A stretch of DNA of 23,566 nt from Deltaproteobacteria bacterium (GCA_024275075.1 JAJRZU010000157.1:1-23566); one strand, 5' to 3'. Counted from the first letter of the stretch, positions 3,122-19,906 are shown. Numbers and translations are program-made. The notes: generated by a model not told the origin, from the letters alone.

Positions 3122-3992
3122 CATTAATATTGTCATAGTAACAGGTCTTTCGGGCTCGGGGAAGTCCACTGTTCTAAAAGTCCTTGAGGATTTAGGGTTC
3201 TTTTGCGTCGATAACCTGCCTGTAGTTTTATTCAATAAATTCCTTGAGTTATGTACGCAGACCACCGGTAACCTGAACAAAGTCGCAATCGGTATGGATA
3301 TCAGAGAGAGGGATTTCTTCAAAGATTACCCCTTGACTTTTAAGGAGTTAAGGGAGGCCGGCTATGATTTTGAGCTGATGTTTTTAGACTGTTCCAGCGA
3401 TGTCATTCTAAGGCGGTTCAGCGAAACGCGCCGCAAACACCCGTTAGAAGGCGGGGGCTCTGTACTTGACAGCATATCAAGGGAAAGACTCAAATTAGCG
3501 GAACTAAAGGATATTGCTACAAAAATAATAGATACGACAAAAATAAACGTTCACGAGCTGAAAAACGAGGTGCGAAAATACTACTCGGATTATTCATCAC
3601 TGCACGCGATGAAGATCACATTGGTATCGTTCGGTTACAAAAATGGCGTACCGACCCCGGCGGATATTGTTATTGATGTGAGGTTCATGACCAATCCATT
3701 CTTTGTCCCTGAGTTAAAGCACCTGACCGGTCTGGATCAAGAGATACGCGATTTCTTGTTTAAAGACAATGATATCGCAAATAGTTTTATCGATAAGTTC
3801 CTCGATTTCCTGAGCTTTTTGATACCGCTGTATGAAAAAGAGGGGAAAAAGTACCTGACGATCGCTATTGGTTGCACAGGTGGCCAGCACCGGTCCGTAG
3901 CTGTTGTGAACAACATATCATCATTGCTGAAAAAAGATTATGAAGAAATAATTGTCACACATAAAGATTTGATTTATAATAAGGAAAAATGA
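3114..3992 (+). CDS. rapZ: RNase adapter protein RapZ (YhbJ/YvcJ family P-loop NTPase)
   Basis: N-terminal Walker A VTGLSGSGKST and the C-terminal domain of the YhbJ family. It overlaps the hprK stop, and ATGA overlaps the next gene. Confidence 0.85.
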   Translation: MNSINIVIVTGLSGSGKSTVLKVLEDLGFFCVDNLPVVLFNKFLELCTQTTGNLNKVAIGMDIRERDFFKDYPLTFKELREAGYDFELMFLDCSSDVILRRFSETRRKHPLEGGGSVLDSISRERLKLAELKDIATKIIDTTKINVHELKNEVRKYYSDYSSLHAMKITLVSFGYKNGVPTPADIVIDVRFMTNPFFVPELKHLTGLDQEIRDFLFKDNDIANSFIDKFLDFLSFLIPLYEKEGKKYLTIAIGCTGGQHRSVAVVNNISSLLKKDYEEIIVTHKDLIYNKEK

Positions 3993-4309
3993 AAGGGAAC
4001 TCGCTTATGGTAGGTATCGTAATCGTAACTCACGGGGAGCTCGCCCACCACCTATTAGAGACGGCAAAAGGCATTGTGGGCGAAGCCAGGCAGGTTGCGA
4101 CGCTCTCTGTCTCTGCTAATAAAGAGATTGCAAAGATAAGGAGTGATCTTTCTGACGCGATTCAAAATGTCGATACGGGTGACGGGGTGTTGATACTGAC
4201 CGATATGTTCGGGGGGACGCCGTCAAACATCAGCCTCTCTTTCTTGAACGAGAAGGAGGTTGAGGTTGTGACAGGGGTCAACCTGCCGATGCTTATAAAG
4301 CTCCTATAG
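3989..4309 (+). CDS. PTS mannose/fructose/sorbose-family EIIA component, interrupted by an in-frame TAG at 4307-4309 (the open part is 106 aa)
   Basis: MVGIVIVTHGELAHH contains the EIIA-Man phosphorylatable His. The ORF stops at TAG 4307-4309. The same frame continues for 41 more codons that resemble the EIIA-Man C-terminus, reaching TGA 4433-4435. See the next feature. Confidence 0.75.
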   Translation: MKGNSLMVGIVIVTHGELAHHLLETAKGIVGEARQVATLSVSANKEIAKIRSDLSDAIQNVDTGDGVLILTDMFGGTPSNISLSFLNEKEVEVVTGVNLPMLIKLL

Positions 4310-4435
4310 ATGCAAGAGAAGAACGAGCTATACTCGCTGGCAAAGAAGATAGAGGTATATGGCAAGAATAACATATACTTAGCAAGTGAAATTCTAAAGA
4401 GCAGGATCGATGTTTCAAAGGGTGGGGAAAATTGA
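4310..4435 (+). other. C-terminal 41 codons of the EIIA-Man gene, in the same frame directly after the internal TAG
   Basis: 4310-4432 encodes MQEKNELYSLAKKIEVYGKNNIYLASEILKSRIDVSKGGEN. It is in frame with 3989 and ends at TGA 4433-4435. That stop overlaps the TTG start of the EIIB gene at 4432, so the ATTGA junction is coupled. The combined length of 147 aa matches a normal EIIA-Man. Confidence 0.6.
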
Positions 4436-4929
4436 GTATTGTCCTTGCAAGAGTTGACAACAGGTTAGTCCATGGGCAGGTGCTTGAGACGTGGGTGCCT
4501 TTCACCAAGGCCAACAGTATTATTGTGCTCAATGACGATGTCTACAATAACCAGTTGCAAAGAGGTATCATACAGTCATGCGTACCGTCATATATTGAAG
4601 TGCTGATCAAAAGAATAGAGGATGTACCGTCGCTTCTTGATTACATATACAGCTCAAATATTAGGTGCATTATACTCTTTTTCAATATTCACGATGCGCT
4701 TGCAGCCTATAAAAGCGGGTTGGCGTTTAATAAACTGAATTTAGGTAATATACATTGCCATACCGGCAGGCGGCAGGTGACCCGTACGATCTACCTGAAC
4801 AATGAGGATATAGAAGGATTAAAGGTGCTTGAGGGGATGAGCATCAAGATAGAGATAAAAACCGTACCACAGGAGAAGGGGGCGGATTTCTTCAAAAAAG
4901 TCGCGAAGATATCCTCATGGGCAAAATGA
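4432..4929 (+). CDS. PTS mannose-family EIIB component
   Basis: LARVDNRLVHGQV is the EIIB-Man/sorbose phospho-His motif. TTG start. Stop is TGA, and it overlaps the EIIC start (ATGGGCAAAATGA). Confidence 0.8.
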   Translation: MSIVLARVDNRLVHGQVLETWVPFTKANSIIVLNDDVYNNQLQRGIIQSCVPSYIEVLIKRIEDVPSLLDYIYSSNIRCIILFFNIHDALAAYKSGLAFNKLNLGNIHCHTGRRQVTRTIYLNNEDIEGLKVLEGMSIKIEIKTVPQEKGADFFKKVAKISSWAK

Positions 4930-5615
4930 TTGATATACTTACTGTAAGTTTATTAGGCGCTCTTTTGTCGCTGGACAGAACGGCGGTGCTGCAATCCATG
5001 ATAGCAAGGCCGATTGTGACAGCCCCACTAATAGGACTCTTGTTAGGGGATGTCTACACCGGGATTGTCATCGGTGCGGCGCTCGAGCTCTTGTGGATAT
5101 CGTTACTGCCGCTTGGCGCATATATACCGCCTGACGAGAATCTGGCGGCGGTTCTGACCACTTCTTGCACGATAATCGGTATGAGGAGCATAAACGTTGA
5201 GCTTCATAACGCGTTCATTGTGTTGAACATATTGTTTTTTATACCTTTCGCCTATTTTGGGAGGACGGTTGACAAATATGTCAGGATCATTAACAACAGG
5301 CTCTCAAATATCGCTGAAAGAGAGTGTGATAATTTTAATTTCACAAAAGTCGAGGCGATGAACATTGCAGGGATGCTGGTATTCTACGCATTGAATTTTA
5401 TTACGATATTTATTCTCTTGTCGATGACTGTAAACATAACGCCGGCTATTTACAATGTGTTGCCGGTATTCTTTACCGATGGACTTGAGATTGCCTATCC
5501 GGTATTCCTGATAGTCGGTGCGGCGGCGGCGCTCTGGGGCAATAAAACGAAAAACTCGTTCATCACTTTTACTGTATCGTTTTTATTGTTTTCGATTATC
5601 CTTGAATTATTATAG
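4917..5615 (+). CDS. PTS mannose-family EIIC membrane component
   Basis: 232 aa multi-pass membrane protein. GDVYTGIVIGAALELLWIS is typical of ManY/AgaW-like EIIC. Stop is TAG. Confidence 0.75.
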   Translation: MGKMIDILTVSLLGALLSLDRTAVLQSMIARPIVTAPLIGLLLGDVYTGIVIGAALELLWISLLPLGAYIPPDENLAAVLTTSCTIIGMRSINVELHNAFIVLNILFFIPFAYFGRTVDKYVRIINNRLSNIAERECDNFNFTKVEAMNIAGMLVFYALNFITIFILLSMTVNITPAIYNVLPVFFTDGLEIAYPVFLIVGAAAALWGNKTKNSFITFTVSFLLFSIILELL

Positions 5616-5625
5616 CAGGTGGAAA

Positions 5626-6423
5626 ATGGTTGTCATTGTAAAAAAGAAGATGAGCTTATTGTTGCTGATGAGGGTACTCGTAAGGAGTCTCTTTATCCAG
5701 TCCGGCTGGAATTTCAAGAAGATGCAGAACCTCGGATTCGCGTTCAGCATCATACCGGCGCTCAAGAGGATATATGGCGATAAGAGCGAGGAGTTGCAGG
5801 CGGCGGTAAAAAGGCACCTTATCTTCTACAATTCTCATCCGTACCTCTCGGCGCCTATATTAGGCGCCACGATCAGCCTTGAGGAGGAGTATAAACTAAC
5901 GGGCGCCGGTATGGAGAACATAAATATCTTCAAGAACAGCATGATGGGTATATGCGGCGGGGTAGGGGACACTTTCTTTTGGGGCGTTGCAAGACCCGTT
6001 GCAGGTTTGTTAGGCGTTATATTGGCGCTCACGGCATATAACATATACGCACCGGTTGCATGTCTCGTATTATATAACATCGTTCATCTGACTTTCAGGG
6101 CGGCTACTTTTTTTTCCAGCTACAAAAACGGGACAGCAGTGACTAAGACAATAATGAAGATCAATCTGAGGACGCAGACGCAAAGACTCAAGAAGCTGGA
6201 GATAGTGTTACTCGGTGCGCTTTTGGCGTTGATAAAAAATAAATTTGTCATTTGCAACTTTGATGTGGTAACTTATAATTTTATCGCGATTTTATTGTTT
6301 ATTTTGATTTTTTTCATTTTATACTTTTTAATTAACAAAAATATTAGTCCGGCGCTGATTGTATATATAGCGGTAACTGCTGTAATATTAATTAGTTATA
6401 TATATAATTCATCGCTCGCTTAA
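5626..6423 (+). CDS. PTS mannose-family EIID membrane component
   Basis: SGWNFKKMQNLGFAFSIIPALKRIY...HLIFYNSHPY...APILGATISLEE aligns along its length with ManZ-type EIID. An RBS (caggtgg) precedes ATG 5626. The ORF table start at 5518 is an upstream in-frame extension that overlaps EIIC. The AT-rich 3' end encodes extra TM helices. Confidence 0.8.
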   Translation: MVVIVKKKMSLLLLMRVLVRSLFIQSGWNFKKMQNLGFAFSIIPALKRIYGDKSEELQAAVKRHLIFYNSHPYLSAPILGATISLEEEYKLTGAGMENINIFKNSMMGICGGVGDTFFWGVARPVAGLLGVILALTAYNIYAPVACLVLYNIVHLTFRAATFFSSYKNGTAVTKTIMKINLRTQTQRLKKLEIVLLGALLALIKNKFVICNFDVVTYNFIAILLFILIFFILYFLINKNISPALIVYIAVTAVILISYIYNSSLA

Positions 6424-6435
6424 CAAGGGAGTTAT

Positions 6436-6708
6436 ATGGAATACGCAGAGATTTTTGAGATTAAGAACAAATTAGGGCTTCATGCGAAGGCAGCGGGGCT
6501 TTTTGTGCAGACGACAAACAAGTTCACCGCCGATTTTTACGTGAAAAAAGATGACATAGAGGTGAACGGTAAGAGCATTATGGGGCTTATGATGTTAGCG
6601 GCCGCGAAAGGGAGCAGGATTTTAGTCAGAGCCAGCGGCAGTGATGCGAAAGAGGGTTTAACTGAGATAAGAGAGCTTATTTTAAGAAAATTCGATGAGG
6701 AAGAATAG
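6436..6708 (+). CDS. ptsH: phosphocarrier protein HPr
   Basis: 90 aa with His15 in GLHAKAA and Ser46 in NGKSIMGLM, the HprK target. Ends with tandem stops TAG TAA. Confidence 0.85.
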   Translation: MEYAEIFEIKNKLGLHAKAAGLFVQTTNKFTADFYVKKDDIEVNGKSIMGLMMLAAAKGSRILVRASGSDAKEGLTEIRELILRKFDEEE

Positions 6709-6713
6709 TAAAT

Positions 6714-8489
6714 ATGAAACATGGAAATAAAATGTATAAGTTGCAGGGTATCGCTGTTTCCCCGGGGATTGTTACCGGTAAGGCGTACCTTTTGGACAGG
6801 AAAAGGGTAAGGCACATTGAAAAGCCGATAAAGGTGGAGAGTGTCGAGCATGAGACCCAAAGGTTCTTAGAGGCGGTTGAGAATTCAAAGAATCAGTTGA
6901 TATCCATTAAAGACAAAATAGCAGGCAGTAAAAGCAAAAAGCCGATCGGGCACGGGCATCTTTATATTATTGATATTCACCTGATGTTCTTAGAAGATAA
7001 GATGCTCATTGACGAAACGATAAATACGATCAGGAAGAAAGAGATAAACGCTGAATGGGCGCTGCGGCTGGTCGTAAAAAACATCCAAAAGGTATTTGAT
7101 AATATCGAAGACGAGTACTTCAAGGAAAGAAGTAGTGATATCATGCACATATCCGAGAGGATTATGAGGAATCTTGTCGGTAAGGAGGAGCAGAGCATTA
7201 TTGAGATCGATGAGGAGATCATAATAATCGCTCACGACCTCTCGCCGGCTGACACTGCACAGATGGCGCTTAACAAGGTAAAGGGGTTCCTCACCGATAT
7301 CGGTAGCAAGACCTCGCATACGGCGATTATGGCGCGCTCTTTGAAAATCCCCGCGATTGTCGGTTTAGAGCGTATAACTGACGTCATAAATGGCGGTGAC
7401 ATAATCATCATCGACGGGATCAGCGGGACGGTGATCATAAATCCGAACGCTGCCACGATAAAAGAGTATGACCAGAAGAAGCTAAACTACGATGAGTATG
7501 AGAAAAAGCTTTTTGTATACAAGAAATTGCCCGCTGTCACGAAGGACGGCAGGAGGATAATCCTAAGCGCAAATATTGAGCTGATTGACGAGATACCGAC
7601 TACCATTGAATATGGCGCCGAGGGGATCGGGTTATATAGAACAGAATTTCTGTATATGAACCGCAAGAATCTCCCTACCGAGGAGGAGCATTTTGAGGTG
7701 TACAAGAACCTCGTTGACGGCATCTCGCCATACCCGATCACAATAAGAACGCTTGACTTAGGCGGTGACAAGTTCATCTCCCAGATACAGCTGGCTGACG
7801 AGATGAACCCGGCAATGGGGCTAAGGGCAATCCGGTTCTGCCTCAAAGAGAAACAGATTTTCAAGACCCAGCTTCGGGCAATACTGCGCGCCAGCCATTA
7901 CGGTGAAATAAAGGTGATGTTCCCGATGATCTCTGGTATCCCTGAGATACGCGAGGCGAAGGGCATATTAGAAGAGGTGAAAACATCCCTTAAGCACGAC
8001 AAGACACCATTTGACGAAAATATTCAGGTCGGTATCATGGTGGAGATTCCCTCGGCCGTGACAATCGCGGATCTACTCGCAAAGGAGGTCGGGTTCTTCA
8101 GCATCGGGACTAACGATCTCATCCAGTACTCTCTGGCTATCGACAGGGTCAACGAACATGTCGCCTACCTGTACGAGCCATTGCATCCGGCTCTGCTCCG
8201 CACGATCAAGCACATCGTGGATACCGCCCATAATGCCGGTATCTCTGTCAGCATGTGCGGCGAGATGGCTGGTGAGCAGGAGTATATTCTCGTTCTACTG
8301 GCGCTCGGGCTCGACCAGCTCAGTATGAACTCGATGTCAATCCCGCGTGTTAAGAAGATCCTGCGCTCATCAAAGTACCATGACGCCAACGAAATTCTAA
8401 ATAACTGCTTCAAGATGTCTACCACCTACGAGATCGAAAAATATGTCCGACAGGAAATGCACACGATGTTCCCCGACGATTTTTCGTAG
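6714..8489 (+). CDS. ptsI: phosphoenolpyruvate-protein phosphotransferase (PTS Enzyme I)
   Basis: 591 aa. The N-terminal region IAVSPGIVTGKAYLL and the phospho-His domain (TSHTAIMARSLKIPAIVG), PEP-binding domain and C-terminal TIM-barrel motifs (GTNDLIQYSLAIDR, SMCGEMAG) are conserved. Confidence 0.9.
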   Translation: MKHGNKMYKLQGIAVSPGIVTGKAYLLDRKRVRHIEKPIKVESVEHETQRFLEAVENSKNQLISIKDKIAGSKSKKPIGHGHLYIIDIHLMFLEDKMLIDETINTIRKKEINAEWALRLVVKNIQKVFDNIEDEYFKERSSDIMHISERIMRNLVGKEEQSIIEIDEEIIIIAHDLSPADTAQMALNKVKGFLTDIGSKTSHTAIMARSLKIPAIVGLERITDVINGGDIIIIDGISGTVIINPNAATIKEYDQKKLNYDEYEKKLFVYKKLPAVTKDGRRIILSANIELIDEIPTTIEYGAEGIGLYRTEFLYMNRKNLPTEEEHFEVYKNLVDGISPYPITIRTLDLGGDKFISQIQLADEMNPAMGLRAIRFCLKEKQIFKTQLRAILRASHYGEIKVMFPMISGIPEIREAKGILEEVKTSLKHDKTPFDENIQVGIMVEIPSAVTIADLLAKEVGFFSIGTNDLIQYSLAIDRVNEHVAYLYEPLHPALLRTIKHIVDTAHNAGISVSMCGEMAGEQEYILVLLALGLDQLSMNSMSIPRVKKILRSSKYHDANEILNNCFKMSTTYEIEKYVRQEMHTMFPDDFS

Positions 8490-8837
8490 GCAGGGAATAG
8501 AGAATAGAAAATAGAGGGTAGGGCGTAGAGTATTGGCGGGGTAGGGGGATACAGTTTACACTACTACAACTACTTGCATATAGCGTACGGAGTATTGAAA
8601 AACAAAACGAGATTCGATGAAGTATTATACAAAAGATGATCCCGCTGGTGCACTATCTTTATTAGATATACAAGCTGAAAAAGGGTGGCATAATGAATTG
8701 ATCCTGTGAGTCCACCTCCATAACAGACTATAATCATTAGTTATATAAGAGAAGGGGGTGTAAATAGCCAGCAAAGCAACGACCGATAAGATATCTTATG
8801 TTAACTCACGCGTGGGGCTGACAAGCAGGGGAAATAA

Positions 8838-9953
8838 TTATAGCAAACTCATAAGGCGGTCGCACTCTGATATCGTATTATAAAAATGTGGTGAGAGTCG
8901 GATCGCGTTGTCCCGGTGCGCGACATTGCAATTATTACCGATAAGCTTTGCGTACAATCTCTTAGTCTCACGATCCTTCGGTACGAAACTGACGATGCCG
9001 GATTTCTCGCCGTCGTCCCGCCTTGGTGAGATTATGGAACACCCAATCCTTCTGAGATTATCGGCGAGATAATCTGTCAGCTCCAAAACAGCGCTCCGTA
9101 CTTTGCTCTGTGTCACTTCTTTCTGTAGCCTAAGTGACCCTCTAACCGCGTGGATACCGAGCATATTCATGCTACCCTCCTCAAAACGCGAGGCGTCGGG
9201 CTTCAGCGTCATACCATAATCCAGGTAATCATCGGAGTTTACTACGCTGGTGTAACCGAGATTTGTCACGTTAAGGATGTCCAAGTTATCGGATTTACAG
9301 TAGAAGAAGCCGACACCCTCGGGGCCTAACAGCCATTTATGCGAGTCCGCCGCCAGAAAGTCGATGTTATCCCTTTTTACATCGATATCAAAAACGCCCA
9401 TGCTTTGGATAGCATCGACAAAGAAGAGAGCGCCTCGTTTTTGCAGCTCACGCCCGAGCTCCTCGAGGTTGACCCTGAAACCGTTTGTAAACTGAACGTG
9501 GCTTATGCTGACGAGCCTTGTTCGTGAATCGATGAGGCCTAAGATATCCTTGATGAGGACGCGACCGGCTGACCACTTGACAAACCTTACATCGACGCCC
9601 TTACGCTTCAGGTTCAGCCATGGGTAAACGTTCGCCGGGAACTCTTTTTCAGGGATGATGACATTGTCGCCATCCTTGAAATCGATGCCGTTCGCGGCTA
9701 ACAAGATACCTGAAGTAGTATTATTTACAATAGCGATTTCATTAGCGTTTGCGCCTATCATGTCAGCCGCCATGCCGCGCGTTTCTTCTACATTAGATAG
9801 CCATTTTCTGTAATGAATACTACCGGTATGAAGGTATTCTTCGAGGAATTTGTTAAGATATTCCAGGGTGAATGTATTCATCGGGGAGACAGCCGCGTGA
9901 TTAAAATATATATAATTATCAGCTACTAAGAAGTGTTTCCTATATTCATTCAT
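8838..9953 (-). CDS. aminotransferase class V-fold PLP-dependent enzyme (cysteine desulfurase / isopenicillin-N-epimerase-like)
   Basis: 371 aa. It has the YFNHAAVSP N-terminus and a PLP lysine motif in SHKWLLGPEGVG. It sits 10 nt downstream of the GT4 gene on the same strand. Confidence 0.7.
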   Translation of the reverse strand: MNEYRKHFLVADNYIYFNHAAVSPMNTFTLEYLNKFLEEYLHTGSIHYRKWLSNVEETRGMAADMIGANANEIAIVNNTTSGILLAANGIDFKDGDNVIIPEKEFPANVYPWLNLKRKGVDVRFVKWSAGRVLIKDILGLIDSRTRLVSISHVQFTNGFRVNLEELGRELQKRGALFFVDAIQSMGVFDIDVKRDNIDFLAADSHKWLLGPEGVGFFYCKSDNLDILNVTNLGYTSVVNSDDYLDYGMTLKPDASRFEEGSMNMLGIHAVRGSLRLQKEVTQSKVRSAVLELTDYLADNLRRIGCSIISPRRDDGEKSGIVSFVPKDRETKRLYAKLIGNNCNVAHRDNAIRLSPHFYNTISECDRLMSLL

Positions 9954-9963
9954 AACGTTTGCA

Positions 9964-10242
9964 TCACCCTTTCGCGGTCACTTTCTTCATAAAATCGGTG
10001 AACTCCACTTTGAACCTATCCGCTGAAAACCGCCTGGCATTCTCGATAATATCCTCGCACGCGAACCCGCCCTGCCCTGCTTCGAATCTCTTGACCGCGT
10101 CAACAAGGCTCTCGATCGTCTGGGAGTCAAAGAATATGCCCGTCTTACCGCTTATGACCGTCTCGGTGGCGCCACCCTTCCCGAACGCGATGACGGGTGT
10201 TCCACACGCCTGCGCCTCAACGGGTACGATACCGAAATCCTC
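9964..10242 (-). other. C-terminal 92 codons of the same GT4 gene, in the same frame directly after the internal TAA
   Basis: The - strand translation [41 protein letters not shown]... is the conserved GT4 catalytic C-terminus (EX7E motif). It is in frame with 10243..11076 and ends at TGA 9964-9966, 10 nt before the aminotransferase start. Confidence 0.65.
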
Positions 10243-11076
10243 TTACGCGGCGAATATGAACGCTTTCGCCCGCAGCATATAGTCACTCAAGGCATCGGCG
10301 CTCTGGTATCCCATGAGCTTGACATTCTTGCCCGCCTTCGCTTTCACCTTCTTTATGTCAGGCCCGTCACCAATGACGACGAGCTCCTTGTCTGGCATCG
10401 TCGAAAAAGCTTCCACTATCAAGTCCATCTTCTTATACGGTACCATCCGTGACGCAGCGAGGTAGAAACCAGCTTTCTCCGTATCAAGGACAGTAGCTGA
10501 ATCCATAATATTAACAGGTGGATATATAACGGTCGCGTCTTTGTTGTAGATCTTCTTGATCCTGCCTGCGGTATATTTTGAGTTCGCGATATAGTGATCG
10601 ACCCTGTTTGCGGTAGTAGCGTCCCAAATCCGCACATAATGCAGGATCGCCTTCGCCATCATCGCTTTTATGCCTCTGGTCAACCCCGCCTCCCTGAGAT
10701 ACTGGTGATACAAATCCCACGCGTAGCGCATCGGTGTGTGGCAGTAGCAGACGTGCGTCTGGTTGGAGCTGACAAGCGCGCCCTTCGCGACCGCGTGAGA
10801 TGACGAGATGACCAGATCGTACCCGGACAGGTCGAACTGTTCGATAGCAAACGGCATCAGCGGCAGGTATGACCGGTACTTGCGCTTCGCAAAGGGCATC
10901 TTCTGCAAAAACGAGGTGTTAGTCGCCTTATCAAGGATAAATCCACGCCCACCCTCTGGCAGGAAATCGACAAGGCAGAATATATCCGCCTCGGGATAGA
11001 GAGAAACTATCTGCTCCAATACCCGCTCGGAACCGGCGTATGTCACGAGCCAGTCATGTACAATTGCAGTCTTCAT
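10243..11076 (-). CDS. GT4-family glycosyltransferase, N-terminal 277 aa up to an in-frame TAA at 10243-10245
   Basis: MKTAIVHDWL...GSERV is a typical GT4/GT-B N-terminal domain. The ORF stops inside the conserved EX7E region (..[26 protein letters not shown]..). Confidence 0.75.
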   Translation of the reverse strand: MKTAIVHDWLVTYAGSERVLEQIVSLYPEADIFCLVDFLPEGGRGFILDKATNTSFLQKMPFAKRKYRSYLPLMPFAIEQFDLSGYDLVISSSHAVAKGALVSSNQTHVCYCHTPMRYAWDLYHQYLREAGLTRGIKAMMAKAILHYVRIWDATTANRVDHYIANSKYTAGRIKKIYNKDATVIYPPVNIMDSATVLDTEKAGFYLAASRMVPYKKMDLIVEAFSTMPDKELVVIGDGPDIKKVKAKAGKNVKLMGYQSADALSDYMLRAKAFIFAA

Positions 11077-11091
11077 AGCTGTAAGTATACT

Positions 11092-11110
11092 ACACTACTT
11101 ATTATTTTCC
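11092..11110 (-). promoter_or_regulatory. candidate sigma-70 promoter for the GT4/aminotransferase operon (-35 TTGACG 11110-11115, 17-nt spacer, -10 TAGTAT 11087-11092); implies a near-leaderless mRNA
   Basis: The - strand reads TTGACG-N17-TAGTAT-acttacagct-ATG. There is no SD sequence before the ATG at 11076. Confidence 0.3.
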
Positions 11111-11159
11111 GTCAAGCAATATGTACCATCAAGATGGATTATAGGGTTAGCGCCGCTGA

Positions 11160-11183
11160 TTTTGTGTTAATATTGACACAAAA
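11160..11183. promoter_or_regulatory. perfect inverted repeat TTTTGTGT-N8-ACACAAAA, a candidate operator upstream of the GT4 operon
   Basis: 8-bp perfect arms separated by TAATATTG. It lies 45 bp upstream of the candidate -35 of the - strand GT4 gene. Confidence 0.35.
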
Positions 11184-11205
11184 CACTCAAGCGGGCGCGT
11201 AGGGT

Positions 11206-11247
11206 AATACAAAAACAGATGGGCAAGCTCATACGCTTGCCCATCTG
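11206..11247 (-). terminator. intrinsic terminator downstream of lpxC
   Basis: The - strand reads CAGATGGGCAAGC-gtatga-GCTTGCCCATCTG, with 13-bp perfect arms, followed by TTTTTGTATT. Confidence 0.7.
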
Positions 11248-11364
11248 AATGAAAAGACATCTAAACAGGGCTTTTCGCCCACAATGGTTACAACAAAGGA
11301 GATCAAAAATTTACTATGTATGTTTTACTATGTATGTTTCAATGTACTATTTTTACTAAAAATT

Positions 11365-12282: not shown

Positions 12283-12321
12283 AACATTTTCCCCTTATAC
12301 ATAAGTGCTGTACAGTGATTG

Positions 12322-12337
12322 AGCAATTAATGTGCCA
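12322..12337 (-). promoter_or_regulatory. candidate sigma-54 (-24/-12) promoter upstream of lpxC: TGGCAC-ATTAA-TTGCT
   Basis: The - strand sequence TGGCACATTAATTGCT has GG-N10-GC spacing with a perfect -24 TGGCAC and a -12 TTGC. The predicted TSS is about 30 nt upstream of the lpxC ATG. It overlaps a TTGACA-N17-TATTGG sigma-70-like arrangement. Confidence 0.4.
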
Positions 12338-12458
12338 ATAATGCGGCTGTCAGGAGATGTCAAGTAAATACAGTGTATTACAAGATATTATTGTAAGAGG
12401 GGTCTTTTTTCGCATATCGCGATCGGCCATATCGTTGCAATAATACAACACTTTCAGA

Positions 12459-12731
12459 TTAAATATTAGCATTTATGCAACAGAAAGCGGGTAGTAGGCT
12501 GGGCAGGTTTTTTTGCCCATCAACATCAACAAAGGTGACATAGCCCTCGGGCGGTTCGTCGGTGTTATCAGTGTCTCCTTCACCTTCTTCGCCGCCACCT
12601 GTATCTGCTTCGTACATGCTCTCATGGTCGCCGAACCCGTCACCGTCCACGTCCGCGTAATATGTTACGGCTGCATCTTCTTCAGCAGTATCGGCAGTAG
12701 TCTCGCCGCTCGTGCTCTCAAGACAGCTCAT
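12459..12731 (-). CDS. possible small acidic protein with a DxDxDG calcium-binding-like motif (YYADVDGDGFGD); uncertain
   Basis: 90-codon ORF with coding-like GNN periodicity and pI about 3. The RBS is poor and the 3' end overlaps an inverted repeat. It lies in an otherwise non-coding 560 bp between lpxC and tRNA-Arg. Confidence 0.25.
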   Translation of the reverse strand: MSCLESTSGETTADTAEEDAAVTYYADVDGDGFGDHESMYEADTGGGEEGEGDTDNTDEPPEGYVTFVDVDGQKNLPSLLPAFCCINANI

Positions 12732-12847
12732 AGTAAAGGAAATAGTGATTGTCCTTTCTTTTTTCGACCGAGCCGCGACCGATTTTGTAATATTAATGAA
12801 TATCGATGGTTACGGGCGGATCCCTATTAGATTGAACTCTGCGTTCA

Positions 12848-12924
<77 letters not shown>

Positions 12925-12984
12925 ACAATAATATAAACAATACATTCGGCAGGTTATGCATCATGTCTGATATTTTACTTTAGA

Positions 12985-13013
12985 TGTATATCATTTTAAT
13001 TATAATATGTCAA
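12985..13013 (-). promoter_or_regulatory. candidate sigma-70 promoter for tRNA-Arg (-35 TTGACA 13008-13013, 17-nt spacer, -10 TATACA 12985-12990)
   Basis: The - strand reads TTGACA-N17-TATACA, with a leader of about 55 nt before the mature tRNA 5' end. Confidence 0.4.
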
Positions 13014-13017
13014 ACAG

Positions 13018-13092
13018 TTTATTCCATCGCGATGGTTTCTAGTTTATTCCATCGCGATGGTTTCTAGTTTATTCCATCGCGATGGTTTCTAA
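13018..13092. repeat. three tandem 25-bp repeats (TTTATTCCATCGCGATGGTTTCTAG), each containing the perfect 12-bp palindrome CCATCGCGATGG
   Basis: Three head-to-tail copies; the third ends in A instead of G. The array abuts the -35 of the tRNA-Arg promoter candidate and lies 3' of the - strand operon that ends at 13109. Confidence 0.9.
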
Positions 13093-13108
13093 GTTCTCAT
13101 TACCTGAT

Positions 13109-13432
13109 CTATTGTGTGTCGCCACTCTCACTCTTTAGCCTAATACCGGTGCTTTGCCCCGCCGAGATTGCATTATCATCAGCCGTATTATGGTATGGGT
13201 TCTCCGATGCAGTTATTCGCGTCAACGCCGCCTCGATATTCGAGATGGATTTGTTCATCCTGATAAGCTGGCGATATGATTCATTCAGGATCGACTTCAT
13301 CTTGAATACAGCTAATGGCAGAACTATCCACATGACTATAAGCAGGAAAAACAAGAAGATAAGGAAAAAGCTAAGGAGGCTGAAAGAGCCCTGCGTAAAT
13401 ATCTTTATAAAGTCTATTTCATTCGCCATCAT
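13109..13432 (-). CDS. small single-pass membrane protein with a C-terminal coiled-coil or disordered tail (hypothetical)
   Basis: 107 aa. It has a hydrophobic segment LLSFFLIFLFFLLIVMWIVLPLAVF. It overlaps the upstream gene by 4 nt (ATGA), which suggests it is co-translated with the TPR/beta-helix protein. Confidence 0.5.
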   Translation of the reverse strand: MMANEIDFIKIFTQGSFSLLSFFLIFLFFLLIVMWIVLPLAVFKMKSILNESYRQLIRMNKSISNIEAALTRITASENPYHNTADDNAISAGQSTGIRLKSESGDTQ

Positions 13433-14748
13433 CGCTCTATTGCCTTGATATCCTCATTATTGTCATCATAATAATTGTTTATAACATTTACGGTATCAAC
13501 TTTTGATATCCCGATATTATTACTGATAAAGTCATTCGCGTCTATCTCCGCCTTCGATGAGTCGGCGGCGGTAATACCGGTGATAATATTCTCAATAAAT
13601 TTGTTCTGGTAAATCCTTGGCGATGAGTTCTTGACAGAATTGATACCTATCTTGTTCTTTATGAACTCATTCTGGTTAATAAGCGCTTTTGAGTTTCCGG
13701 TCATCGAGATCCCAAGCTTGCACTCTTTAAAGCCATTTTCATATATCTTAGGGAATGATTTATCATAAGTACCAACACCGCAGTTGTTCTGCTCAAAAGT
13801 GTTCTTAGCAATCTCAGGCTTCGAGGAGTCATAGGTCTTAATACCGTAATTGTTCTTTGTAAAATTGTTGTTGATTATATTACTTTTCATGGCACCATCG
13901 CACTCGATCCCTGTCTCGTTTCTATAAAAGATATTATAATCAATAGATACTTTCGATTTGTCAATGAACTTGACAGCGACATCGTTCTTTAAAAATATGT
14001 TGTTCTTAAACAATAATTTCGGGTTACCTTTTATAACGACAGCATTTTTCGCTCTTTCAAATTTAGAGTGCTGTAAGATCGACATTTTACTGCCATCGAA
14101 GATGAGACCGCCCCAAAGCCCGATCCGCTTTGTCGTCAGGTCTTCAAAAGAATTTGAGAAGAGAATCTGGTTCTCTTTCGTCCCTTGCGCGATCAGTGTA
14201 CCACGAACGATAAGTGAGCTGAACCCCTTTGTATCCTCACTCTTCAGATATGGTATTTTTTCGTCACGCCGGCTGGACAATGGCGCGAACATCACTAATG
14301 AACCAGGTTTTATCGTAAGCACAATGTTTTTTGGTATTGTAACATCACCATCGATGAGTATCCAGCCATCCCAGACCTCATATGTCTTCATAGTACCCAC
14401 TGTAGTCGGTTTCGAGAGTACTTTTGCCATATCCCTGATCAGCTTCTTCGCGCTTTTAAGCATCTTCTTGTCAGAGGAAACTTTCAGGAACGTATCAAGG
14501 CTCTTAACGGCAGAAGGGTAGTCTTTGATATGTTTATAAGCTAACCCGAGGTTAAAATAAACATTTATGCTGCTTTCGCTTAATTTCGCCGCTTCTTCAT
14601 AAGCCTTTATCGATTCTTTATAAAGCCCGTCCTTGTAAAAGGCGTTACCATCTTTTATAAGCTCTGAGTAGCTTTTGGCGTACAGCGTACCAGATAAAAA
14701 CAAGGTGAGCAACGAGAAATAAATAAATATTCGTGATACTTTTTTCAT
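13429..14748 (-). CDS. secreted TPR-repeat plus right-handed parallel beta-helix repeat protein
   Basis: 439 aa. A signal peptide (MKKVSRIFIYFSLLTLFLSGTLYA) is followed by TPR-like repeats (AYEEAAKL, YFNLGLAYKHIKDY). About 22-residue repeats rich in N/I/G/K (NNNFTKNNYGIKTYDSS, FEQNNCGVGTYDKS, NEFIKNKIGINSVKNS) are typical of PbH1/NosD-like beta-helices. Confidence 0.6.
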   Translation of the reverse strand: MKKVSRIFIYFSLLTLFLSGTLYAKSYSELIKDGNAFYKDGLYKESIKAYEEAAKLSESSINVYFNLGLAYKHIKDYPSAVKSLDTFLKVSSDKKMLKSAKKLIRDMAKVLSKPTTVGTMKTYEVWDGWILIDGDVTIPKNIVLTIKPGSLVMFAPLSSRRDEKIPYLKSEDTKGFSSLIVRGTLIAQGTKENQILFSNSFEDLTTKRIGLWGGLIFDGSKMSILQHSKFERAKNAVVIKGNPKLLFKNNIFLKNDVAVKFIDKSKVSIDYNIFYRNETGIECDGAMKSNIINNNFTKNNYGIKTYDSSKPEIAKNTFEQNNCGVGTYDKSFPKIYENGFKECKLGISMTGNSKALINQNEFIKNKIGINSVKNSSPRIYQNKFIENIITGITAADSSKAEIDANDFISNNIGISKVDTVNVINNYYDDNNEDIKAIER

Positions 14749-14891
14749 CTTTTACTCCCGATTTTAATGAAATAAGTCAAACAATAACTCATTAAATTTA
14801 CTTATATCTTCATGGCAAACATCATACTTCCATATCATATTACGTAGCCTATTAGTCAGATAACGCATACAAGTCCGCTGAAATTTGCCAT

Positions 14892-14920
14892 ATTCTATTA
14901 CATATAATCAAAACAATCAA
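14892..14920 (-). promoter_or_regulatory. candidate sigma-70 promoter (-35 TTGATT 14915-14920, 17-nt spacer, -10 TAGAAT 14892-14897) for the TPR/beta-helix gene
   Basis: The - strand reads TTGATT-gttttgattatatgtaa-TAGAAT in the 176-bp gap between the SPFH gene and the TPR gene. Confidence 0.3.
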
Positions 14921-14924
14921 TCAT

Positions 14925-16634
14925 TTATTTTTTTCGTACCGGCTTTGGTGCAGCCGCCTTCATCCCCTGCAACAGATTGCTCGCGCCAAGTATCGCGGCG
15001 GCGCCCTGAATACCACCGTCAGCGCCCTGGACATACACGTTTGGTACCTTGACAATCTCGGGTTGCTCAACAGCCGCCTGCAATATCTTTTCTAATATAC
15101 TAAGCTGCATAACACGGGCTTCACCAAGTACTTTAGCCTGCGCTTTTTGCCCTGCGGCGATCTCAAGGAGCCTTAACTTCTCACCTTCGCCCTGCTTTTG
15201 TAACGCCAGTTTCTTCTGTTCGGCTATCTTCACCTCCATCTCCGCCGCGACAAGATTAGGCTGCTGGTCAGCTTCCGCCCGTGACTTCTCGCTTTTTATC
15301 CTTTCGTCCTGAGCGATCTTCTCCTGCTCATAGGCTTTCTTGAGCTGCCCTGCAAGTTGTTCCCTTTGCCGCGCGGTAAGCAGCTCTGGGGGGATGCCCG
15401 GATCACCGAACCGGATCTCCTTGATAGAGACGCCCGCCTTGTCACCCTCGGGTCTTATCTGCTCCTCTACCTTGTCCTCAAGCTCACCACGCTTGTCCTG
15501 AAGGTCAAACACCTTCATCCCCTCTTCGCTGACGACGTTTCGTACGACGCTCCTTATGGCCGGCGTAAGGATCTTGTCCTCTATCTGCTGAAGGCCGCCG
15601 ACAGAAGCGACGACAAACGGCGCGTTCTCCGGCGCCACCTGCACCAACACGCGCAAATCAAGCGGTATCTGCCAACCCTCGACCCGTACGAGTATCGCCG
15701 GATCCGCGGCGTCTTGTGGTACCGGGAACGGCATCTCTCTCTCCTTTTGCGTTATCTCGCCCTTCTGGTTGACAATAAGGTCGATCTGCCTCTTCGTATA
15801 ACCACCGATGTATTCCCACGCCTGCACCAATGTCGATATCTTTGTCAGATGATACGCTCTTTTGTTCAGATAATACATGCCCGGATAAAGCGGCTCATCC
15901 CATACGCCGATACAGCCCTTCGGTACTAACGGTACAGAAAGAGAGCCCTCTTGTGAAACGTGTGTCGGCACACATTTATCGACCTCCTGGACGTTTGATT
16001 TGACAACGCCCACTTCACCGGCGCTGATACTCGTCGCCTCCTCGATCTGCACGTCAAACAGATAGCGGTTCAGCCGGTACATCCCTGGTTTCAGTACGCT
16101 TAGCTGGGCGCCCTTCTGCCCGCCGTTTTTCAGAAAGTACTCCGCGTTGAGCATTTCCTGGAAGTTCTCTTCAGCCCAACCCGCGGCGAGAAACTGCCCC
16201 TTCTTCAGCGGCAGCCCGTCCTTTGCGGTAAGAAGACCATATTTCCCTTCGGGTATGCTGAGAAGTGGATATTCCTCAATCTCATACATCAGATTCAAAA
16301 GAAGCTCAAAATGGAATCCCGGTGCCAGCACCCTCCCCTGAGGGCCGTTTTCGCGGTTAAAGGCGATCACCTGCCCCGCCGGCATGCTCCCCCCGCCATA
16401 TACCCTCTTTAAGTGCCCTACCTTGTTCGAATCGATGATTACGAACGATGTGCTCATGATAGCGGCCAGTGCGAGCACCACGCCCGCTATCCTCGAACCA
16501 TACCTGCCCCACTTGACATAATTAAGCCTGTTGGCGTCGACCGCCACTCCCTGCACAACACTTTGTGTAAAAAACATTTGACCTAGAAAGAATACCGCGA
16601 CTGCGATCAGTAACAAAAGTAATGTTGGTGCCAT
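14925..16634 (-). CDS. SPFH/band-7 domain, flotillin-like membrane protein
   Basis: 569 aa. An N-terminal TM helix is followed by an SPFH-like core (RVLAPGFHFELL). A long C-terminal charged E/A/K/Q-rich coiled coil (ARQREQLAGQLKKAYEQEKIAQDERIKSEKSRAEADQQ) is typical of bacterial flotillins (YqiK/FloT-like). The RBS is gggagg. Confidence 0.5.
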   Translation of the reverse strand: MAPTLLLLLIAVAVFFLGQMFFTQSVVQGVAVDANRLNYVKWGRYGSRIAGVVLALAAIMSTSFVIIDSNKVGHLKRVYGGGSMPAGQVIAFNRENGPQGRVLAPGFHFELLLNLMYEIEEYPLLSIPEGKYGLLTAKDGLPLKKGQFLAAGWAEENFQEMLNAEYFLKNGGQKGAQLSVLKPGMYRLNRYLFDVQIEEATSISAGEVGVVKSNVQEVDKCVPTHVSQEGSLSVPLVPKGCIGVWDEPLYPGMYYLNKRAYHLTKISTLVQAWEYIGGYTKRQIDLIVNQKGEITQKEREMPFPVPQDAADPAILVRVEGWQIPLDLRVLVQVAPENAPFVVASVGGLQQIEDKILTPAIRSVVRNVVSEEGMKVFDLQDKRGELEDKVEEQIRPEGDKAGVSIKEIRFGDPGIPPELLTARQREQLAGQLKKAYEQEKIAQDERIKSEKSRAEADQQPNLVAAEMEVKIAEQKKLALQKQGEGEKLRLLEIAAGQKAQAKVLGEARVMQLSILEKILQAAVEQPEIVKVPNVYVQGADGGIQGAAAILGASNLLQGMKAAAPKPVRKK

Positions 16635-16714
16635 TTTACGCCTCCCATGCTAAACTTCCGCCGTATTACAATATTGATAATATTTTTCCAGGATATAACG
16701 CGCACCGGAAAAGG

Positions 16715-17296
16715 TCAGACAAGCTTTATCACTCCATGCTCCTGCAAATCCCTGATAACTCTGGAGAGCGGGAGCCCGACAACATTAGTATACGAACCGG
16801 TGATCTCCTCCACCATAAACGCGCCGATACCCTGTACTGCATAGCCGCCGGCTTTGTCGTACGGTTCATCGGTGTTGACATAAAACCGCGTCTCATCTTC
16901 TGAAAGCTTCTTTATCTTCACCTTCGAGACAACACAGTCGCCAAGGAGCCTGCCGCGGTTCACGTTCTGCAAACAATAACCGGTATAGACCTCATGCACT
17001 CTGCCGCCCAACAGGTCTAACATACGCCTCGCCCCGCGCTTGTCCTCAGGCTTACCAAGTATCCTGCCGTCGAGCACAACGACAGTGTCCGCCGCCAGTA
17101 CCCACGCGTCAGGGTGAGTATCCGCTATCTTTGCCGCCTTCTTCTTAGACAGGCGGATAACATGCTCCTTTGGGCGCTCACCATTCATATAGTCTTCATC
17201 TACATGGGATGGTATGACATCAATGTCAATCCCCATGGCGCGAAGCATCTTTATCCTTCTTGGTGATGATGACGCTAAAATAAGATCCGCCCCCAA
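16715..17296 (-). CDS. maf: Maf-like nucleoside triphosphate pyrophosphatase (septum formation protein Maf)
   Basis: 193 aa. LILASSSPRRIKML is the Maf N-terminal signature. Length and the rest of the sequence are consistent with Maf. Confidence 0.85.
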   Translation of the reverse strand: MGADLILASSSPRRIKMLRAMGIDIDVIPSHVDEDYMNGERPKEHVIRLSKKKAAKIADTHPDAWVLAADTVVVLDGRILGKPEDKRGARRMLDLLGGRVHEVYTGYCLQNVNRGRLLGDCVVSKVKIKKLSEDETRFYVNTDEPYDKAGGYAVQGIGAFMVEEITGSYTNVVGLPLSRVIRDLQEHGVIKLV

Positions 17297-17312
17297 CTAT
17301 ACCTCGCTTATA

Positions 17313-17516
17313 TTATTTAATACATTGAATAAAATAGTAAATCGATCTGTTAAACTTCTTCTCAGCCTCTTCGGGAAAGAAGCAGCCGGGTAACTCTTCC
17401 CGCCCCTTATGATAAGAGACACACTTGCAACAGTTGCCTCTGCGCGAGCAGCTTGTATAAGTGCATGTACACTCTTTTAAGGTCGATTCTTTGCCGCATT
17501 CCATGGTTTTATGCAC
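17313..17516 (-). CDS. small cysteine-rich protein (9 Cys in 67 aa), possibly metal-binding; hypothetical
   Basis: MHKTMECGKESTLKECTCTYTSCSRRGNCCKCVSYHKGREELPGCFFPEE. It sits 16 nt upstream of maf on the same strand. The alternative start at the second Met (MECGKE) gives 63 aa. Confidence 0.5.
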   Translation of the reverse strand: MHKTMECGKESTLKECTCTYTSCSRRGNCCKCVSYHKGREELPGCFFPEEAEKKFNRSIYYFIQCIK

Positions 17517-17750
17517 CCCCCAGAATAAAAAAATGTGGAATTATTATGACTTATATCTGAACATGATTAAATATTGTGCAAATATTTTTTACTTCGTTGT
17601 TATTACTACGTTATTTAGATTGCATATATTTTAAGCAAAATGCTGTTTTTCTCTATTTTATGCTGTTAAACCAGCCTCACTAACAATGAATTGCACATGT
17701 TATCAACAGTTTTTGTCAATAAATACTCATTATCGATACCGGTGTATTTC

Positions 17751-17766
17751 AACAGGCGCGCCTGTT
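17751..17766. other. perfect 16-bp GC-rich palindrome AACAGGCGCGCCTGTT (hairpin)
   Basis: It lies 50 nt 3' of the - strand gene ending at 17818. It is followed on the + strand by TTTTAT. It may act as a terminator or processing hairpin, or as a protein-binding site. Confidence 0.4.
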
Positions 17767-17817
17767 TTATCTCTGTGTTTGATTCCCCGCATCCCGCCAT
17801 TGAAAAAATCAGCGGAA

Positions 17818-18501
17818 TCACCTTATTTTTACGCGCACATTTTCATTATAAGAGTACCAACTATTAAAGTCAAAGTAAACATCTATATTCCATATAATTT
17901 TCGGGCGGTCTCTTTCAAGTTTCAAGTGTGTGCTTTGAGCGTCATCGGGTAATGTAAGCTGTTTTTCGTATGAATAGCGTTCATCACGCGCTGAAATATC
18001 CCCACCAAGCACGATCTCTTGTTTGAATGGCGTCTCAACGCTGATAGATTCAAAGTCCAGCACTTCGAGTATCGACTCTTTGCGTAACGAAAGGACTAAC
18101 CTGACCTCTTTTAACTCCCGCTTCCTTAGCTGGAAGCTGACATTGACTTTTATCTTATCACCAGAGGCATATTCATCCTTATCCACTTCACAGCTCAAAT
18201 CGTTCAGGCAGCTCCTGATTTGCGCGTTACGTATATATGCCAAAAGGAATATAACGAATGTCAACCAGAACGTAACGGCGAATCCAGTCATGATAAAGGT
18301 GACGACATAATAGACCAGATGCCTTTTGGCCGGATACTTCACCATGTTTATGACAAGCTCCGCCGTAGATATAGTCGCCCCGAAAGCGAGGATGAATGAA
18401 AGCGCGGCAAAAAGACGCATCCTTATCTTCGTAGTTCGCTCTTTGACGCTCGCGATCCTGATTATCTCTTCAATGAACCTTGTCTTGAAAATCTCATCCA
18501 T
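17818..18501 (-). CDS. hypothetical membrane protein (two TM helices plus a C-terminal beta-rich soluble domain of about 120 aa)
   Basis: 227 aa. TM segments are FAALSFILAFGATISTAELVINMV and LVYYVVTFIMTGFAVTFWLTFVIFLLAY. The start is 4 nt after the folC stop (TGAATAATG). I recognise no conserved family. Confidence 0.5.
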   Translation of the reverse strand: MDEIFKTRFIEEIIRIASVKERTTKIRMRLFAALSFILAFGATISTAELVINMVKYPAKRHLVYYVVTFIMTGFAVTFWLTFVIFLLAYIRNAQIRSCLNDLSCEVDKDEYASGDKIKVNVSFQLRKRELKEVRLVLSLRKESILEVLDFESISVETPFKQEIVLGGDISARDERYSYEKQLTLPDDAQSTHLKLERDRPKIIWNIDVYFDFNSWYSYNENVRVKIR

Positions 18502-18504
18502 TAT

Positions 18505-19449
18505 TCAGTCACCTTTTTTCAGATATTTGAGCGCGTCACCAACGGTGAATAAAGAACCTGAGACAAAGATAATCGAGCCGTCCTCGTACAGGTCATACGC
18601 ACGATCCAACGCGCTTTTGACATCAGGTACACTTATCACATTCGCGTCGCTTTCAAAGCCGGTTAGCAGTTTATTCGGGTCCGCCGCGCGGTTTATCGCC
18701 GGTTTGGTCAGGATGACGGTATCAGACACGCCGCACACGCGCTTTAGTATGCCCGCGGTATCCTTGTCACTCATCACACCGATAACGCTTATGATCCTCT
18801 TACCCGCGAAGTTAGCCTTGAGCGTATCGATCGCGGTGCGCATCGACGCGTCATTATGCGCGCCATCTAATATAAGAAGCGGATCGTCAGAAAAGAGATC
18901 GAACCGCCCCGCCCACTTCACGTCGCCAAGCCCGCTTCGTATGCTCCACTCCCCCACCAAAAAGCCGCTACCCTCAATCAGTTCGGTCGCGGCTATCGCC
19001 AGTGAGAAGTTGTCAAACTGGTGCCCACCCATGAGGCTCTTCTTGATACCGCTGTACGATCTGTTGATACCGGTATAATCAAACGTATCCGCACCGATCT
19101 TCGTATACGTAAAATCGCGGTGGAGCTGGTACACCTTCGCGTCCATAGCATCCGCGGCAGCCTCGATGACTTCCCGCGCCCGCTCATCATTTACGCCTGA
19201 GATAACCTCCGCGCCCCTTTTTATGATACCCGCTTTCTCCTTCGCGATCTTTGCTATTGTGTCGCCAAGGTAGCGCTGGTGCTCCATCGATATGCTCGTC
19301 AAAACGCTCACTGTAGGCGTTACAACGTTTGTCGCGTCGAGCCGCCCCCCCATACCGGTCTCTATCACCGCGATATCCACTCCCTTTAACATGAAGTAAT
19401 AAAACGCTATTGCAGTAGTATACTCAAAAAAAGTTATCTCGCAATCCAA
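18505..19449 (-). CDS. folC: bifunctional folylpolyglutamate synthase / dihydrofolate synthase, C-terminal 314 aa (after an in-frame TAG at 19510-19512)
   Basis: ETGMGGRLDATNVV, AKEKAGIIK and ILDGAHNDAS are Mur-ligase/FolC motifs. It is in the same frame as the N-terminal fragment. Confidence 0.85.
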   Translation of the reverse strand: MDCEITFFEYTTAIAFYYFMLKGVDIAVIETGMGGRLDATNVVTPTVSVLTSISMEHQRYLGDTIAKIAKEKAGIIKRGAEVISGVNDERAREVIEAAADAMDAKVYQLHRDFTYTKIGADTFDYTGINRSYSGIKKSLMGGHQFDNFSLAIAATELIEGSGFLVGEWSIRSGLGDVKWAGRFDLFSDDPLLILDGAHNDASMRTAIDTLKANFAGKRIISVIGVMSDKDTAGILKRVCGVSDTVILTKPAINRAADPNKLLTGFESDANVISVPDVKSALDRAYDLYEDGSIIFVSGSLFTVGDALKYLKKGD

Positions 19450-19512
19450 ATTAAGCGCGGCTTTCTTCTCCCGAATGATTCGGGTAATGTCGATAACGCT
19501 CGCATCGTCGAT

Positions 19513-19779
19513 CTAGCCGCCGCCCGCGCGTATCCTCTCATTAAAATCGATAAGGTGGGGAGAAGTGTACAGACCGACTCTATAGCCGCTCTTTGTCAGC
19601 ATGGACTCTATCGCGGCGGCGGTAGACCCTTTCCCGTTAGTACCGGCGATGTGGATAGTCTTGTATTTTTCCTGCGGGGAAGAGAGGGCGGCGAGCAGCT
19701 TACGAATATTTGTGAGCCCGAGCTTGATACCGAATTTCTGCAGGTTGAAAAGATAATCGATCGTCTCTTTGTAATCCAT
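19513..19779 (-). CDS. folC: folC N-terminal fragment (ATP-binding P-loop region), ending at an in-frame TAG
   Basis: MDYKETIDYLFNLQKFGIKLGL...HIAGTNGKGSTAA...YTSPHLIDFNERIRAGGG* matches the FolC N-terminus, including the GTNGKGST P-loop. The ORF table starts at TTG 19815; ATG 19779 aligns better with FolC N-termini. Confidence 0.8.
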   Translation of the reverse strand: MDYKETIDYLFNLQKFGIKLGLTNIRKLLAALSSPQEKYKTIHIAGTNGKGSTAAAIESMLTKSGYRVGLYTSPHLIDFNERIRAGGG

Positions 19780-19820
19780 CAAATCATTTCTTTGCCGGTC
19801 GATGCTGATAAACAAAACAG

Positions 19821-19877: not shown

Positions 19878-19906
19878 GTATACTATTCATTACAATGCGC
19901 CCTGCC

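Follow-up and report, generated by a model that had tools for sequence, protein, structure and literature searches.

The window analyzed here, 23566 bp in length, is a whole NCBI contig (GCA_024275075.1, JAJRZU010000157.1) of a metagenome-assembled genome (MAG). Its host is Desulfobacterota-like: LpxC shows 74% identity to a 'Deltaproteobacteria bacterium' MAG and, otherwise, approximately 50-55% identity to Desulfobacterota MAGs. Three genes of this window, encoding the EIIA protein of a mannose-family phosphotransferase system (PTS), a GT4-family glycosyltransferase (GT) and the folylpolyglutamate/dihydrofolate synthase FolC, are each interrupted by a single in-frame stop codon. The most likely explanation, to which we assign about an even chance, is that the three stops are erroneous substitutions, or the result of damaged template, that became fixed in the MAG consensus. 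The three genes are normal and recently functional, and we infer an artifactual origin for their interruptions.

Three interrupted genes in one contig

The premature stops are a TAG in the EIIA gene, a TAA in the GT gene and a TAG in folC (Table 1). Their places, and the lack of any accompanying frameshift, are as described in an earlier interpretation of this DNA (hereafter, the sequence-only reading). In all three genes the length from the start to the true stop is a multiple of 3, which indicates that no frameshift is present. A single Pfam domain extends over each stop (EIIA-man, 3-115; Glycos_transf_1, 200-349; Mur_ligase_M, 44-264), with additional matches to Glyco_transf_4 (57-189) in the GT and to Mur_ligase_C in FolC. 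PDB homologs align unbroken across each of these positions, namely 3lfh and 5im4 for EIIA and 1o5z over 1-423 for FolC, and the same applies to the GT. The stops are also carried by the public record, in which the gene calls are cut off at the same positions: the protein fragments P0248 (100 aa), P0121 (277 aa) and P0001 (295 aa) are 100% identical to the window open reading frames (ORFs).

For comparison, we used the syntenic loci of three relatives at the family level, with 65-80% amino acid identity, all of them from metagenome samples: relative A, GCA_024276115.1 (L083 and L001); relative B, JGI sample 3300041080 (L084 and L082); and relative C, JGI sample 3300041085 (L085 and L081). All three genes are intact in these relatives. 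EIIA is 137-141 aa long and FolC 424-436 aa long in the relatives, both uninterrupted, and FolC is intact in every relative found; GT homologs at 62-69% identity measure 365-390 aa. No conspecific sequence was found in the collections searched; exact look-ups of LpxC and P0001 were empty, and cluster membership yielded no accession. The best non-self matches were 74% for LpxC in a contig scan and 64% for FolC, 69% for the GT and 82% for EIIA in protein searches; at the protein level, identity to the nearest relatives does not exceed the range of 59-82%.

Of approximately 25 genes in the window, three are interrupted. In good genomes, well under 1% of genes are expected to contain internal stops, and the proportion observed here is far above that value.

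Table 1. Positions of the interrupted genes, their premature stops and other features of the window
Feature	Position	Strand	Remarks
EIIA (mannose-family PTS) gene	3989..4435	+	likely start ATG 4007 (MVGIV...); true stop TGA 4433-4435
EIIA premature TAG	4307-4309	+	context CTA TAG ATG; ...LIKLL(stop)MQEKNE...
GT4-family glycosyltransferase gene	11076..9964	-	true stop TGA 9966-9964
GT premature TAA	10245-10243	-	GCG TAA GAG GAT TTC; ...FIFAA(stop)EDFGIVPVEAQ...
folC gene	19779..18505	-	ATG start 19779; true stop TGA 18507-18505
folC premature TAG	19515-19513	-	GGC TAG ATC; ...ERIRAGGG(stop)IDDAS...
HprK Val codon (GTG)	2801-2803	+	at the Gly of E-[IV]-R-G-L-G-I-I
ptsN stop (TAG)	2147-2149	+	in frame with hprK, seven sense codons before it (2147-2173)
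EIIB start (TTG)	4432-4434	+	overlaps EIIA TGA stop (A-TTGA-G)
First block: rpoN (5' end runs off contig), hpf, ptsN, hprK, rapZ, mannose-family PTS EIIA/EIIB/EIIC/EIID, ptsH, ptsI		+	in this order
Next block: class-V aminotransferase, GT4 glycosyltransferase, lpxC, tRNA-Arg(TCG), TPR/beta-helix protein, SPFH (Band_7) protein, maf		-	
Same block, after maf: DUF6485-like ORF, 227-aa ORF, folC, 86-aa ORF		-	
Last block: TPR protein, DUF3857 protein		+	
90-aa ORF	12459-12731	-	beside tRNA-Arg; no Pfam match
Tandem array, 25 bp x 3	13016-13091		perfect; intergenic, downstream of 107-aa ORF
Tandem array, 19 bp x 3.1	19820-19878		perfect; intergenic, just upstream of folC
Tandem array, 26-bp unit, 7.4 copies	23375-23566		perfect; from last codons of DUF3857 gene to contig end

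All three interrupted genes end in TGA, as do 9 of the 25 genes overall; the probability of this by chance is approximately 0.04, it was noticed post hoc, and we regard it as a coincidence. The sequence TAGAT is shared by both TAG sites only, and for this reason a common sequence motif at the three stop sites is not convincing. The TTG start codon of the EIIB gene overlaps the true stop of the EIIA gene; since this arrangement is kept in all three relatives, it is a feature of the lineage and not a lesion.

Gene layout and neighboring features

The coding density and operon structure of the window are fully intact, without a frameshift in approximately 25 genes, and gene lengths, operon order and overlaps agree with those of the relatives. 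A six-frame reading of the window and tblastn searches with the genes of the relatives identified no further hidden in-frame stops and no gene remnants in the intergenic regions. In the syntenic block that contains orf86, folC, orf227, the DUF6485 gene, maf and the SPFH gene, folC of relatives B and C is preceded by a Metallophos_2 gene, and their orf227 is followed by a Lactamase_B_3 gene (L081 and L082). Both genes are absent from the window (17517-17817 and 19816-19906), and neither tblastn nor six-frame reading revealed a remnant of them.

Three perfect tandem arrays are present in the window (Table 1). The longest, composed of the unit AAGGGAGCCAAACGCTCCACCGAAAT, is probably the reason why the assembly ended at that point. 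The ORF of 90 aa beside the tRNA-Arg gene encodes a very acidic sequence (...DVDGDGFGD...EGEGDTDNTDEPPEG...) with a high content of Asp, Gly and Glu; it could represent part of a secreted repeat protein, or it might not be a gene.

Inferred base changes

As the sequence-only reading had proposed, homologs carry ordinary amino acids at the three interrupted positions, and the corresponding codons were sense codons in all of them. Among 119 homologs of EIIA, the residues at the stop site are mainly T (51), D (24), N (24) and S (17); relatives A and B have Ser (TCA and TCT, respectively), and relative C has Ala (GCG). The simplest origin of the EIIA stop would be TCG>TAG (C>A), which is likely, not certain. 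The GT site is occupied by Glu in 111 of 119 homologs, in which it forms the sequence FAA-E-EDFGI and immediately precedes the E-x7-E motif. Because this column is near-invariant, GAA>TAA (G>T on the coding strand) is the only one-step route to the stop, and this assignment is firm. The FolC site, located after the ERIR motif, is variable (E 41, P 37, L 15, A 7 and Q 5), and the six closest sequences have Q, E, E, N, N and D. Given that relative C has the codon GAG at this site, GAG>TAG (G>T) would be the simplest and likely, not certain, origin of the folC stop; CAG>TAG (C>T) could also have produced it, because the closest hit, P0002, has Gln.

Based on these comparisons, all three stops fit one mutational class, the G:C>T:A transversion, with the ancestral codons at the EIIA and folC sites inferred from relatives. 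A fourth anomalous change in the window belongs to the same class. HprK has a Val (GTG) at the position of a Gly that is present in 23 of 23 other homologs and in three PDB structures of HprK, and this Gly>Val replacement (GGN>GTN, G>T type) is probably damaging. In RapZ, a Leu>Ile change (CTT>ATT) was found at a conserved column. On the + strand, the three changes proposed for the stops read as C>A and that in HprK reads as G>T; given this difference, no strand-specific process is claimed.

Mutators deficient in mutM, mutY or mutT give a G:C>T:A signature via 8-oxoguanine. The same kind of change, C>A/G>T, has been described as a library-preparation artifact of oxidized guanine, i.e., 8-oxoguanine (Costello et al. 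2013, PMC3616734). As in 8-oxoguanine damage or in a mutator, each of the three stops and the HprK replacement could be explained by one G:C>T:A step from the codon of the homologs. Nevertheless, the published artifact occurs at a low allelic fraction, whereas the changes described here are in the consensus; the class was deduced here from relatives at 60-80% identity and is firm for the GT site only, and the window lineage has no global excess of it. In a four-taxon analysis of lineage-specific changes over 2747 codons, the window had 18 C>A and 13 G>T changes, similar to the relatives, although this comparison has little power. In nine families with 491 conserved columns, the window deviated at 8 columns, 6 of them specific to the window; relative A had 5 such specific deviations, and relatives B and C had 2 each. 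By our own estimate, three nonsense changes imply approximately 30-70 substitutions in the contig, of which approximately 3-5 would be expected in the tested columns, even at an error rate of 0.3%. Since so few additional deviations are expected, neither the conserved-column test nor the spectrum test can separate error from mutation models.

Constraint on the interrupted genes

Each interrupted gene has one lesion and an intact frame. Based on alignments with 119 homologs per gene, in which columns conserved in at least 95% of the sequences were considered, the window deviates at 2 of 79 conserved columns in FolC, 2 of 119 in the GT and 0 of 35 in EIIA, values within the range of the homologs. 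The three-taxon branch ratio of the window was 1.29 for EIIA and 1.46 for folC, and 13 uninterrupted genes gave ratios of 0.83-1.78. Old, decaying pseudogenes were thus rejected as an explanation, given the single lesion in each gene, the lack of frameshifts, the retention of conserved residues and the normal divergence. In the absence of decay, the lesions must be either extremely recent or not biological. The suggestion of an elevated nonsense load with ongoing gene decay therefore holds only in part: the conserved residues and normal rates contradict ongoing decay, and what is left of it is the possibility of very recent mutations.

The accumulation of pseudogenes is known in genomes under relaxed selection, such as those of recently host-restricted bacteria. 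The window is similar to these genomes in that several genes, including housekeeping genes, are affected, and in that each has a single lesion. It differs from them in having no frameshift, no faster protein evolution and no loss of conserved residues, in its preserved coding density, and in that the genes are intact in the relatives. In addition, folC is normally indispensable, and a free-living bacterium would be expected to die or to be strongly impaired after its knock-out.

Translation termination and the genetic code

In the window, the genuine stop is TAA in 9 genes, TGA in 9 and TAG in 7. In 90 genes of the relatives, the corresponding numbers are 55, 18 and 17; TAG thus accounts for 19% of the stops in the relatives and 28% in the window, an apparently small difference. 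TAG had been considered the most frequent genuine stop. This is incorrect for the window as a whole; TAG leads only in the rpoN-ptsI operon, where it accounts for 5 of 11 stops. The argument built on an atypical frequency of TAG consequently rests on a miscount.

TAA or TAG terminates 16 genes of the window. Twelve of these have an ortholog in a relative, and in every one of the 12 the end differs from that of the ortholog by 0-4 residues, a coincidence of ends that excludes reassignment of these codons. Further stops also occur in frame a short distance after rpoN, and the stop of ptsH is directly followed by another. These observations corroborate the view that canonical stops are functional and that wholesale reassignment is unlikely. 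The stop of ptsN is in frame with hprK (Table 1), and the TAA stop of the EIID gene is in frame with ptsH, four codons before it; judging from the ends of the orthologs, both are normal terminations.

A reassignment of TAG and/or TAA to an amino acid, including pyrrolysine at TAG, has the in-frame TAG and TAA codons in conserved genes as the single observation in its favor, and we consider it extremely improbable. Besides the ends of the 12 ortholog-checked genes, the residues aligned with the stops argue against it, since they differ from site to site: Ser/Thr in EIIA, Glu in the GT and Glu, Pro or Gln in FolC. Pyrrolysine decoding was rejected because one of the stops is a TAA, which cannot specify pyrrolysine, and because none of the interrupted genes (EIIA-Man, GT4 transferase and FolC) encodes a methylamine methyltransferase. 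According to a survey that covered more than 250,000 genomes, every stop reassignment known in bacteria involves UGA (PMC8629427). The genetic code of the organism is the standard one, and the contig offers no evidence of a new code or of unusual decoding.

Real stops could also be tolerated by read-through, by means of a suppressor tRNA (CUA or UUA anticodon), a weakened release factor, or termination followed by re-initiation. Several observations would be compatible with such an explanation, which we consider very unlikely: the EIIA TAG is directly followed by an ATG, at which re-initiation might occur; apart from the stop, the genes have the appearance of full function; the position is variable at two of the three sites, which might therefore accept any residue; AT follows both TAGs; and the three genes share TGA as their final stop, the post hoc observation mentioned above. 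Nevertheless, read-through would have to be reconciled with the 16 genes that end in TAA or TAG, whose checked ends match those of the orthologs, and with the tandem in-frame stops after rpoN and ptsH. No suppressor tRNA was found in the window, in which tRNA-Arg(TCG) is the sole tRNA and the sole Rfam match, and folding of the 120 nt that begin at each stop was no more favorable than that of shuffled sequences (z of -0.02, 0.12 and -0.02). The release-factor genes prfA and prfB lie outside this contig. A stop at any of the three positions is found in no homolog. Moreover, a single mechanism would have to serve both UAG and UAA, and the known bacterial reassignments are all of UGA (PMC8629427). 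A programmed read-through site was rejected, as the stops are not conserved in the relatives and no structure follows them. The suggestion that a suppressor tRNA or leaky termination tolerates these codons consequently found no support in this window.

Compared with known systems of stop reassignment or suppression (the UGA>Trp/Gly codes, pyrrolysine at UAG and amber-recoded phages; PMC8629427), the window shares the presence of in-frame stops at sense positions of conserved proteins. It differs from these systems in that TAA and TAG still terminate most genes at ends matched by the orthologs, two stop codons are involved, the aligned residues are different at each site, the relatives do not have the stops, and the window contains neither a suppressor tRNA nor a downstream structure.

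Consensus errors or recent mutations

The lesions are exclusively substitutions, are located in otherwise intact genes and are confined to one assembly. Each stop corresponds to one single-base substitution present only in the deposited consensus, and one G:C>T:A change per site (Ser TCG>TAG, Glu GAA>TAA and Glu GAG>TAG) is the most economical origin. If they are errors, such changes could arise from base miscalls at poorly covered positions with low local depth or from miscoding template damage (8-oxoguanine) carried through the amplification of few template molecules, and the stops would not be part of the sequence that the cells translate. Substitutions of one class, the absence of decay, the interruption of an essential gene and the intact relatives are exactly what consensus errors would give. 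The sequence-only reading started from the premise that assembly errors mostly produce frameshifts. In reassemblies of short reads, however, low-quality data were shown to add mainly internal stops, not frameshifts, and the number of spurious internal stops was closely related to the identity to the true genome (R2 = 0.96) (Cooley & Wright 2024, PMC11017572). Internal stops are thus a signature of base miscalls, and systematic substitution errors, which would here fit the single class G:C>T:A, had been dismissed too quickly. In the same study, 3.6% of the tested RefSeq assemblies (those with a neighbor at an average nucleotide identity of at least 99.9%) were rejected for an excess of internal stops. 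The 'pseudogenes' described there and the genes of this window have in common isolated in-frame stops, the lack of frameshifts, conservation of the remaining sequence and occurrence in one assembly only. In that work, an excess of internal stops was used as a proxy for assembly error; in the present case, the density of 3 stops in 23.6 kb is far above the scale of 'one per Mbp' discussed for assemblies at 10-fold coverage or less (PMC11017572).

The main competing explanation is that the stops are real and result from nonsense mutations that arose very recently in the population sequenced, in which the genes would be newly dead or complemented; we consider this possible, at clearly less than an even chance. 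Such mutations could have occurred in a clonal lineage with defective 8-oxoguanine repair (of the mutM/mutY type, G:C>T:A) or after selection was suddenly relaxed through a small population, dependence on a partner or a high number of genome copies per cell. The public consensus, which normally represents the majority allele, carries the stops; the three stops and the HprK replacement fit the class expected of such a mutator; and the absence of the Metallophos_2 and Lactamase_B_3 genes of relatives B and C could hint at gene loss. On the other hand, three knock-outs in 25 genes, without frameshifts, raised divergence or loss of conserved residues, would require a very short and intense burst of mutation, the coding density and operon structure are fully intact, and the loss of folC in a free-living cell should be lethal or strongly deleterious.

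Nothing directly contradicts the presence of the stops in the deposited sequence, and several points weigh against consensus errors. Three nonsense changes in approximately 20.7 kb of coding sequence, with the 30-70 substitutions they imply, would correspond to a consensus error of 0.1-0.3%, which is very high. A contig of 23.6 kb needs decent coverage to assemble, and its length argues for adequate coverage and hence for a reliable consensus, a point that also favors real mutations. The oxidation artifact, found at a low allelic fraction, would reach the consensus only with few templates or at very low depth (PMC3616734). The window-specific changes at conserved columns (6 of 491) are only slightly above those of the relatives, the lineage-specific spectrum (of little power) lacks a global excess of C>A or G>T, and the ancestral codons at the EIIA and folC sites were deduced from relatives at 60-80% identity. 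We consider it unlikely that the stops are genuine and that the cells of this uncultured Desulfobacterota lineage live with them, either as a natural hypermutator without 8-oxoguanine repair or because UAG and UAA are tolerated within genes (through a suppressor tRNA, leaky termination or complementation by many copies) while both still act as terminators.

Implications

The occurrence of three in-frame stops in this window is correct and statistically unusual, and its explanation falls within already well-known phenomena, namely, 'pseudogenes' whose internal stops stem from base errors, or nonsense mutations of recent date. In the case of errors, the contig would be a worked example for the identification of spurious pseudogenes in MAGs, whose marks are stops reached by a single substitution, changes of one mutational class and genes that are otherwise under full purifying selection. 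Caution would then be required when this MAG is used to deduce gene loss or metabolism, e.g., the loss of folate synthesis or of the PTS. Real stops would instead point to a hypermutator in the environment or to a lineage that tolerates stops, a result of moderate interest.

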